Positions 7,646 through 57,938 are shown, counted from the stretch's first letter. The stretch: 64,000 nucleotides of DNA from Alphaproteobacteria bacterium (GCA_963667785.2 CAXXMU010000005.1:224001-288000); one strand, 5' to 3'. The notes: generated by a model not told the origin, from the letters alone. Numbers and translations are program-made.

Positions 7646-7657
7646 GGGCGGGCATGT

Positions 7658-7928
7658 TAACCTGCACTTCTCACCATGGTCATGGTCTGCGCGGCGCTGT
7701 CCGACCGACAGGGCAGGAGAGGCGCGCAGCGCGATGCGGGGACATCGGGCAAGCGCCTCGACGCACACTGTCGGTCGGACAGCGCCGCCCTTCGGGTCTC
7801 GCCCAGGCGCCCGCCCGCGGCGTCGCGAGCCTCAACCGTATTCCCCGATACGCTTTTCGGCCCGCTCCTGGCGGATCGAACGCCTGGTGCGCGACGCAGA
7901 CCGTGACCATGGTGAGAAGTGCAGGTTA
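7658..7928. mobile_element. MITE-like structured repeat, family A, copy 1
   Basis: Perfect 25-bp terminal inverted repeat TAACCTGCACTTCTCACCATGGTCA (7658-7682 / 7904-7928), TA at both ends. About 85% identical by manual alignment to the reverse complement of 27971-28239. Confidence 0.88.
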
Positions 7929-7953
7929 GCAGCCCGCGCGCGCCGGCACCGGC

Positions 7954-8676
7954 TCAATACATGTGGGTGCCGCCGTTCATGGTGATGGTGGAGCCGGTGG
8001 TCCATGCCGCCTTGTCGTCGACGAGAAAGAGCACCGCATGCGCTACCTCGTCTTCGTAGCCCATGCGGCGAACGGGCGACTTGTCGATGATCTTCTTCAC
8101 GATCTTCTCGGGCATGTTGCGCATCATGTAGGTGTCGACGTAGCCGGGCGCCACGGTGTTGACCGTGATCCCGTGCCTCGCACCCTCCTGCGCCAGTGCC
8201 TTGGTGAAGCCGTGCATGCCCGCCTTGGCGGCGACGTAGTTGACCTGGTTGAGCTGGCCGGCCTGGCCGTTCATCGAGCCGATCTGGATGATCCGGCCCC
8301 AGCCGCGTTCGATCATGCCGGGATAGACCGCCTTCGACATGTAGTAGACGGAATCGAGATTGACCCGCACCACCCGCTGCCACTGGTCGTCGGTCATGTT
8401 CTCGAACTTGTTGTCGGAGACCGTGCCTGCGTTGTTGACGAGGATCTCGACCGGGCCGTGCTCAGCCTCGATCGCCGCGACGCCCGCGCGGCAGGCCTCG
8501 CCGTCGCTCACGTCCCACTTGCGCGCCGGAATGCCGGACTCCGCGCTGAACGCGGCGGCGCAGGCCTCGTCGGCATGGTAGTTGACCACCACCGGGTGGC
8601 CGGCCTGCTTCAGGGCACGCGCGATCGCCGCGCCGATGCCGCGCGTGCCGCCGGTAATCAGCGCATGCCGTTCCAT
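7954..8676 (-). CDS. phaB: Acetoacetyl-CoA reductase, second tandem paralog
   Basis: TGGTRGIG, NNAG, NGQAGQLNQVNYVAAKAG (YxxxK), ends NGGTHMY; 240 aa. Confidence 0.85.
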   Translation of the reverse strand: MERHALITGGTRGIGAAIARALKQAGHPVVVNYHADEACAAAFSAESGIPARKWDVSDGEACRAGVAAIEAEHGPVEILVNNAGTVSDNKFENMTDDQWQRVVRVNLDSVYYMSKAVYPGMIERGWGRIIQIGSMNGQAGQLNQVNYVAAKAGMHGFTKALAQEGARHGITVNTVAPGYVDTYMMRNMPEKIVKKIIDKSPVRRMGYEDEVAHAVLFLVDDKAAWTTGSTITMNGGTHMY

Positions 8677-27970: not shown

Positions 27971-27973
<3 letters not shown>

Positions 27974-28239
27974 CCCGGATTTCTCACCAATGTCACGGCC
28001 TGCGTCACGTCCAGGCGTTCGGTCCACAAGGAGCGAGCCGAAAAGCGTAGCGGGGACTACGGTTGAGGCTCGCGACGCGGTGGGCGGGCGCCTGGGCGCG
28101 ACCCGAAGGGCGGCGCCCTCCGCCAGACAGGGTGCGTCAAGACGCTTGCCCGATGCACCACATCGCGCTGCGCGCCTTTCCTACCCTGTCGGGCGGGGGA
28201 CGCCGCGCAGACCATGACCTTGGTGAGAATTCCGGGCTA
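27971..28239. mobile_element. MITE-like structured repeat, family A, copy 2
   Basis: 25-bp TIR TAGCCCGGA(T/A)TTCTCACCAA(T/G)GTCA (2 mismatches), TA ends. Its first three bases are the gyrB stop codon. Homologous to 7658-7928 in inverted orientation. Confidence 0.88.
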
Positions 28240-50503: not shown

Positions 50504-50575
50504 TGCCGCCGGGAAGAATTGAACTTCCGACCCCTCCCTTACCAAGGGAGTGCTCTACCCCTGAGCTACGGCGGC
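50504..50575 (-). tRNA. tRNA-Thr(GGT)
   Basis: GCCGCCGTAGCTCAGGGGTAGAGCA-CTCCC-TTGGTAA-GGGAG...GTTCAATT...CGGCGGCA cloverleaf; CCA not encoded. Confidence 0.96.
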
Positions 50576-57853: not shown

Positions 57854-57938
57854 GCGGGCGTGGCGGAAGCGGTAGACGCGCGGGTCTCAAAAACCCGTTC
57901 CTTCGGGAGTGTGAGTTCGAGTCTCACCGCCCGCACCA
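57854..57938 (+). tRNA. tRNA-Leu(CAA)
   Basis: GCGGGCGTGGCGGAAGCGGTAGACGCG-CGGGT-CTCAAAA-ACCCG, long variable arm, GTTCGAGT, ends CGCCCGCACCA. Confidence 0.96.

Follow-up and report, generated by a model that had tools for sequence, protein, structure and literature searches.

A TA-flanked MITE of Alphaproteobacteria carries a covarying hairpin module twice, in opposite orientations

Is the interior of a small mobile repeat constrained as a folded structure, and if so, what is the unit that is kept? An alphaproteobacterial locus raises this question. The window, the whole stretch of 64,000 nucleotides of DNA that was analyzed, contains two inverted, TA-flanked copies of one element, which the initial annotation had judged about 85% identical and had read, tentatively, as one multi-stem RNA (or single-stranded DNA) of about 270 nt in a single orientation. 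The two copies are as described: elements of 267 and 265 nt that are 86.9% identical over 251 nt by blastn, with an E value (3.9e-81) that excludes a chance likeness. Moreover, the differences that had been listed as preserving base pairing were found in the alignment, both in the terminal stem (ACCTGCA/TGCAGGT versus GCCCGGA/TCCGGGC) and in the inner stems (CGTAT..ATACG versus CGTAG..CTACG; CCGC/GCGG versus CCAC/GTGG). The reading as a single RNA was not borne out. We found instead that the conserved unit is a hairpin module of about 70 nt, which each element carries twice, once per arm, in opposite orientations.

Copy 1 with its flanking TAs occupies window positions 7658-7928 and consists of TA, the 267-nt element (7660-7926) and TA. 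Copy 2 with its flanking TAs lies at 27971-28239 on the minus strand, inverted relative to copy 1, and its 265-nt element is at 27973-28237. The predicted fold of copy 1 has an outer stem formed by both ends and two long internal arms, and it is stable on either strand (-192.7 kcal/mol on one, z -14.5 versus shuffles; -201.2 kcal/mol on the other, z -15.1). The left terminal inverted repeat (7660-7690, plus strand) is the 5' half of the outer stem and pairs with the right terminal inverted repeat (7896-7926, plus strand), which is the 3' half. Arm 1 spans 7691-7788 and arm 2 spans 7796-7895; the junction between them is the linker CCCTTCGGG at 7788-7796. To compare copies, we aligned 118 distinct family members from at least 20 genomes and counted pairs on the consensus fold. 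Five of seven linker columns are invariant in 118/118 copies, and the remaining two have rare variants only. Length is similar across the family, with 107 of the 118 collected stretches, each including four flanking bases on either side, measuring 272-275 nt and the others carrying insertions.

Several observations demonstrate that the element moves. The source genome (G000; 4.09 Mb, 14 contigs, 98% complete) contains 12 full-length copies. Of 20 other genomes in the genus, 19 have a match to the element, most with at least 12 matches. The site of copy 1 is empty in the relatives G005, G008 and G012, which read ...ATGG TA GCAG... where the source genome has TA, 267 nt and TA. The TAs at 7658-7659 and 7927-7928 are therefore the left and right target-site duplications of the single TA at the empty sites. 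The site of copy 2 is empty in G002, again with a single TA (...GACGTC TA GACG...). Neither window site is occupied at the same TA in any relative searched, and G013 has an independent insertion at another TA within the spacer of copy 1. These empty sites and the duplicated TA bear out the proposal that this is a MITE with TA flanks and terminal inverted repeats. We conclude with high confidence that it is such a non-autonomous transposon. Consensus sequences of the element from eight genomes are 91-98% identical pairwise, in a sampling biased to copies like copy 1, and flanking genes are 80-91% identical between relatives. Sequencing runs that contain this DNA are mostly labeled as sponge metagenomes.

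The insertions have a clear target. TA flanks the left end of 82 of the 118 copies, the right end of 88 and both ends of 59, and the reconstructed target is YTAR in 52 of these 59, with CTAG the most common (n = 16). In 46 of the 118 copies, the flanking TA together with the terminal purine of the element forms a stop codon in a coding-like open frame. Counted by ends, 47 of 169 complete an in-frame stop codon, versus 19 and 14 in two control frames. Copy 2 is one such case: TA and the first G of the element make the stop codon of the neighboring frame. A crude GC3-based gene caller that misses genes placed 25 of 43 scored copies in tandem, 10 in convergent and 8 in divergent gene contexts, and by the same caller the orientation of the element relative to its neighbors in tandem contexts is unbiased (11 versus 14). 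The spacer at window 7650-7960, between two conserved genes, is an insertion hotspot across the genus. In the source genome it is filled by the MITE and in G013 by a separate MITE insertion, G003 has an IS630-type element there, and several further species have inserts of 1-2 kb.

What moves the element? IS630 elements have a preference for CTAG targets, and the IS427 group of the IS5 family also duplicates TA at YTAR. The most likely candidate for the mobilizing enzyme is a transposase of the IS630/Tc1-mariner type, and the IS427 group is the alternative. The IS630/Tc1-mariner family is described as inserting at TA and duplicating it (PMC2170065). The annotation had suggested looking for a transposase with matching terminal repeats, and none was found either in the source genome or in the sampled IS630 loci of relatives. 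The source genome has no match to PF13358 (IS630) or PF13340 (IS5 family); across the genus, 16 of 21 genomes have a PF13358 match. An end-motif and profile scan of 12 sampled IS630 loci of relatives detected no end like that of the element, a TA-flanked terminal-repeat scan of the same 12 loci plus L196 found no matching ends, and neither did an inverted-repeat search of 8 of the 12. L196 (G003:C1:960400-961900) is an IS630 copy that occupies the orthologous spacer in G003, and its ends differ from those of the element. Two candidate partners were rejected. In G003, two terminal repeats separated by 1.97 kb turned out to belong to one family copy split by an IS5/IS1182-like insertion (L209, G003:C1:226700-230300), a 1.64-kb sequence encoding a 440-aa DDE_Tnp_1/DUF772 transposase. 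A low-GC sequence of 150 nt joined to one terminal repeat is not the end of an insertion sequence; it belongs to a separate repeat family of about 160 nt, which has the terminal repeat of the element at one end only and a low-GC body. This second family occurs in several genomes of the genus, for example at C1:721260-721455 and C2:377938-378085 in the source genome and at L201:1500-1662 in G012, which has at least six copies.

The covariation seen between two copies extends to the whole family. In the 118-copy alignment, 41 pairs show changes on both sides, versus 21.0 ± 2.5 in shuffles and 10-21 in slid controls, and 379 cells carry such changes, versus 106.6 ± 8.0 and 26-57. Standard pairs are formed by 94.7% of cells (shuffles 91.5%, slid controls 33.6-40.5%). 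None of 500 shuffles reached the observed value in any of these measures. In an all-against-all scan the strongest covarying pairs sit on the predicted helices, above a background linkage of up to about 10 cells. The outer stem has 31 pairs, 13 of them with both-side changes. The claim that the interior is constrained as a fold, beyond what the ends alone would need, thus stands. A companion claim, that loops are invariant or more conserved than stems, does not hold within the family, where rare variants per column are equally frequent in stems and loops (1.99 and 1.92, p 0.76). Individual copies, once inserted, thus show no evidence of purifying selection, and the family covariation sits in variants that are common to subfamilies. 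One pair inside the terminal repeats, 22:253 (window 7677 and 7909 in copy 1), is hypervariable, yet 71 of 118 copies have a Watson-Crick pair there and the four pair types are about equally frequent. A transposase that recognizes two separate duplex ends would not account for this pattern.

The strands of the whole element are indistinguishable. Mean stability across the family is -191.7 kcal/mol on one strand and -191.0 kcal/mol on the other, with the plus strand better in 65 copies and the minus strand in 51; likewise, G.U exceeds A.C at 36 pairs and the opposite is true at 37. Both strands fold equally well because the module is carried twice in opposite orientations. Weak matches in other families had pointed to the tip of arm 1, and when a 76-nt piece from there (window 7700-7775) was searched by blastn against 300 other sampled Alphaproteobacteria, 20 of them had a match, representing 19 of 253 other genera. 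Arm 2 read on the minus strand (7806-7881) aligns with the same module, flanks included. A covariance model of the module, R1, finds the core of arm 1 at 7700-7775 with sense on the plus strand (85.5 bits) and the core of arm 2 at 7809-7884 with sense on the minus strand (66.9 bits). In copy 2, it finds the arm 1 homologue at 28123-28197 (minus, 76.8 bits) and the arm 2 homologue at 28014-28089 (plus, 67.3 bits). The 24 modules that R1 detects in the source genome are two in each of the 12 elements.

How far does the module extend beyond this genus? R1 identified 43 modules in 28 sources, including both window copies and a plasmid of Terrarubrum flagellatum, and wherever both ends are present they are convergent pairs about 108 nt apart. 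In a class sample with one genome per family, 16 of 150 other genomes had matches (15 of 149 without the unpublished genome G069), from 2 to at least 32 each. In a phylum-wide sample, 2 of 150 genomes did, and both are Alphaproteobacteria. The matches elsewhere in the class lie between unrelated housekeeping genes, inside TA-flanked elements with terminal repeats unlike those of our element; three classes of terminal repeat were seen, beginning GCCCGCATTTC.., GAGC.. and GCACCCAC.. A search of a plasmid collection with the element gave one partial match, on the Terrarubrum flagellatum plasmid NZ_CP091854.1, whereas the module alone gave none and a doublet from another family gave chance-level matches only. 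On that plasmid (L216, 168503-168688) the genes for subunits IIC and IIB of the sorbitol PTS flank a module doublet, and T. flagellatum (strain 7MK25) is the only named organism in which we found one.

The structure of the module is supported by changes at nearly every pair. RNAalifold predicts 23 pairs for an alignment of 21 sequences, 19 of them with double changes that keep pairing, and in these sequences the internal-loop segments AGG and ACG and one A of an AA bulge are invariant, while the other bulge A is nearly so. Across about 18 families the unpaired AGG, AA and ACG are near-invariant. AGG opposite ACG, beside GA opposite GA, would allow tandem G.A pairs. Among 41 distinct module instances, 22 of 23 pairs have both-side changes (shuffles 17.8 ± 1.2, slid controls 10-14), as do 233 cells (shuffles 69.7 ± 6.5, slid controls 40-59), and 91.9% of cells form a standard pair (shuffles 63.3%, slid controls 29.0-45.6%); 0 of 500 shuffles reached these values. 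This alignment was fitted to R1, which leans the counts towards structure, and many of its rows are kin, so that the cell counts overstate the number of independent events. Conservation of the hairpin across many alphaproteobacterial families suggests that the hairpin itself has a function.

Once the orientation of each module is set by its conserved sequence motifs, a strand-specific wobble bias appears. On the sense strand of the class-level set there are 50 G.U and 13 A.C cells, and 12 pairs have more G.U versus 3 with more A.C (p 0.035). In the 118 family copies, arm 1 in its own sense has 55 G.U versus 21 A.C, and arm 2 in its own sense has 44 versus 21 at non-fixed pairs, which omits two fixed G.U and one fixed A.C. 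Together these counts give 99 G.U versus 42 A.C, and over all pairs in the family 25 have more G.U versus 9 with more A.C (p 0.009). Kin copies are not independent, and cell-level p-values overstate this evidence. A G-U strand bias had been proposed for the element as a whole. It is present in each arm in that arm's own sense and absent over the whole element, where the tests are flat because the two modules have opposite polarity; the G-U examples originally given lie in arm 2, read in the sense of arm 2, and agree with the per-arm bias. Because its polarity is reversed between the arms of a single element, the bias cannot be produced by mutational strand bias or by strand-symmetric correction of palindromes. 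The excess fits selection on a single strand, and that strand is most likely RNA. In DNA hairpins, too, G.T is the mismatch tolerated best, and the strand bias is therefore also compatible with single-stranded DNA or a cruciform.

Could the hairpins then act entirely as DNA, one sense hairpin per strand in a cruciform or in single-stranded DNA, without a role for RNA? A dimeric transposase or host protein would bind them and join the ends of a short, stiff element or otherwise aid its spread. The two-fold symmetric architecture would suit such a role, as would the equal folding of both strands, and so would the pairing pattern at 22:253. This explanation would also account for covariation in subfamily-shared variants, those of lineages that kept transposing, next to private variants that are unconstrained. 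We nevertheless consider it somewhat unlikely. Cleavage by Tc1/mariner/IS630 enzymes is described as acting on duplex ends without a hairpin intermediate (PMC2170065), the module outlives particular terminal repeats across families, which would be odd for an accessory tied to one transposase, and searches with PF01797 associated no DNA-hairpin transposase with the module. Those searches bear equally on a REPIN-like doublet moved on single-stranded hairpins by a RAYT (REP-associated tyrosine transposase), for which the inverted doublet of imperfect hairpins and its strand-specific mismatch pattern might speak. PF01797 has no match in the source genome, which is 98% complete and has 12 elements, and it is present in only 2 of 5 genomes that have from 11 to at least 32 module matches. 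In addition, REPINs are not known to have the TA duplication or the long terminal inverted repeats that the element shows. RAYT-driven movement is thus extremely improbable.

Template-switch (quasi-palindrome) mutation or conversion between arms could keep long imperfect palindromes paired without any function. Most double changes in the family do fall in two long stems (13 of 31 pairs in one, 21 of 31 in the other), and rare variants do not avoid stems, as such upkeep would predict. Conversion is strand-symmetric, yet sense-strand G.U exceeds A.C in each arm with opposite polarity, and fixed G.T mismatches persist uncorrected in 112 of 118 and 93 of 118 copies. Neutral upkeep also does not predict that unpaired loop segments would be near-invariant in so many families or that the module would be retained under different terminal repeats, and we regard it as improbable. 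The idea that the whole fold of about 270 nt is one mobile, orientation-specific small-RNA gene would be consistent with the strong fold and with covariation across the element. It is disfavored by the lack of strand bias and the equal strand stability of the whole element, by the unbiased insertion orientation, by the absence of a promoter-like site in the element and by class-wide conservation of the module only, without the terminal stem. Such a gene is very unlikely.

We therefore favor, with moderate confidence, a MITE whose module is selected as a single-stranded hairpin, most likely as RNA. On this proposal, a transposase acting in trans would recognize the terminal inverted repeats of about 31-35 bp, and cut-and-paste transposition would insert the element at the TA of a YTAR site and duplicate the TA. 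Its cargo is a convergent doublet, with the module in sense on the top strand in arm 1, in sense on the bottom strand in arm 2, and a short linker between them. From whichever side a transcript entered, it would run through a terminal repeat into a sense module, and the element would thus function however it was inserted. Selection would keep the module as a single-stranded hairpin. Its three helices covary, and its internal loops are rich in purines: AGG faces ACG, where G.A pairs may form, and there is an AA bulge. Many copies coincide precisely with a gene's stop codon, and in these the module would lie in the 3' untranslated region of that gene, where it might serve in protein binding, processing or stability.

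A more specific form of this proposal is that the module functions as an RNA motif, namely a hairpin with G.A-type loops that binds protein, and that MITEs have spread it through Alphaproteobacteria as an orientation-independent cassette. We offer this only tentatively, as a possibility that falls short of an even chance. Owing to the inverted doublet, any gene transcribed into the element would be followed directly by a sense copy, and the first base of the element would often restore the stop codon of that gene. If this is true, the cargo is what is selected, and it outlasts both terminal repeats and transposases. That would be the reverse of the usual MITE, in which only the ends matter and the interior drifts; here, the interior is conserved and the ends differ. 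Roughly a tenth of the alphaproteobacterial families sampled have the conserved hairpin, which covaries and shows a wobble bias specific to one strand. As an RNA motif, it would constitute a high-copy, unannotated structured element that is absent from Rfam, and it would show mobile DNA delivering the same RNA signal downstream of many genes in either orientation.

Neither window copy matches Rfam 15 at E <= 1, in agreement with the earlier suggestion that it is undescribed there, and the only window matches at gathering score are two tRNA genes, at 50504-50575 (minus) and 57854-57935 (plus). Among eight loci of other families, none came near an Rfam 15 gathering score. The best was a match of L235:1164-1258 to Pab19, an archaeal H/ACA RNA (32.5 bits versus a gathering score of 55, E 0.043), which is probably due to chance. 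Contigs of one metatranscriptome cover the element, more weakly relative to its flanks than in DNA runs; they carry no information on strand, ends or level. The element has no promoter-like or terminator-like site. In the papers searched, four 11-nt strings from the module matched unrelated primers only, and no report of a MITE from a sponge symbiont was found.

How does the element compare with repeats that are already known? It resembles RUP of Streptococcus pneumoniae, a 107-bp IS630-type MITE that inserts at TA and has ends matching IS630-Spn1 (PMC2229807). RUP and other IS630-type MITEs are, like our element, described as short, non-autonomous, intergenic and present in many copies, with terminal inverted repeats and TA insertion. 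The differences are that our element has no matching partner in the loci searched, whereas RUP has IS630-Spn1, and that its cargo is conserved class-wide while the ends differ; the account of RUP in PMC2229807 mentions no structured, conserved cargo. Closer in kind is bcr1 of the Bacillus cereus group, a transcribed, mobile, MITE-like repeat in which compensatory changes keep a cruciform-like RNA structure (PMC3184786). Compared by description only, bcr1 shares mobility and a compensated fold with our element and differs in belonging to an unrelated phylum, in its length of about 155 bp and in its 5-bp direct repeats. Transcription is reported for bcr1; for our element the transcript data are the metatranscriptome contigs described above. 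Because MITEs of the bcr1 type keep an RNA fold by compensatory changes, this kind of element is already known. What is new is that the cargo is shared across the class while the ends differ, that the inverted doublet is obligatory and that each arm has its own wobble bias.

The main risk to this novelty is kinship with CIR1-4 (Chen and Shapiro 2003), repeats of Caulobacter and other Alphaproteobacteria that are intergenic and conserved between species (PMC2229807). The predicted CIR RNA, about 110 bp in length, has two hairpin arms and a linker, with conserved GANTC methylation sites at the loop (PMC2229807). Our element is likewise an alphaproteobacterial intergenic repeat with two arms and a linker, but only 6 of 118 copies contain GANTC, at scattered positions. 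The comparison is with the description of CIR, to which the element may yet be related, and some class-level relatives with TAGAGC-type ends do have GANTC about 20 nt before the module.

Other families share single features with the element. REP and REPIN sequences are also inverted doublets of imperfect hairpins in intergenic DNA, but they are moved by RAYT, while our element has no RAYT association and does have a TA duplication and long terminal repeats. REPs are, moreover, shorter than its modules of about 70 nt. ERIC and Correia (NEMIS) elements form one long hairpin by pairing of their two ends, whereas our element has two internal arms, each a separate conserved hairpin with invariant internal loops. 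Both of these are, like our element, MITE-like repeats, and their transcribed hairpins are described as affecting the mRNA of neighboring genes (PMC2229807).

Repeats of this kind break assemblies, and many of the matches lie at contig ends; R1 can be used to annotate them. Variants of the element are also recurrent. The source genome has about 29 solitary terminal repeats of roughly 35-40 nt, each preceded by TA and followed by unrelated sequence, for example, outside the window, at C5:137210-137249, C6:588273-588312 and C6:776898-776939. Both left-end and right-end variants were seen, and some are deletion derivatives that keep part of one arm. Some family copies have inserts of 25-29 nt with CGCGCG-NNNN-CGCGCG mini-palindromes at or near the tips of either arm (L009, L011, L012 and L063 at the tip of arm 1; L008, L011, L063 and L107 in arm 2), which resemble either a hairpin that has expanded or a very small nested palindromic unit. 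Finally, in 8 of 118 copies (L011, L040, L058, L075, L129, L143, L145 and L154) the last 9 nt or so of the right end are swapped for a recurring AAC(A/C)A(T/A)(A/C)AGT.., which may be another repeat inserted there or a variant end.
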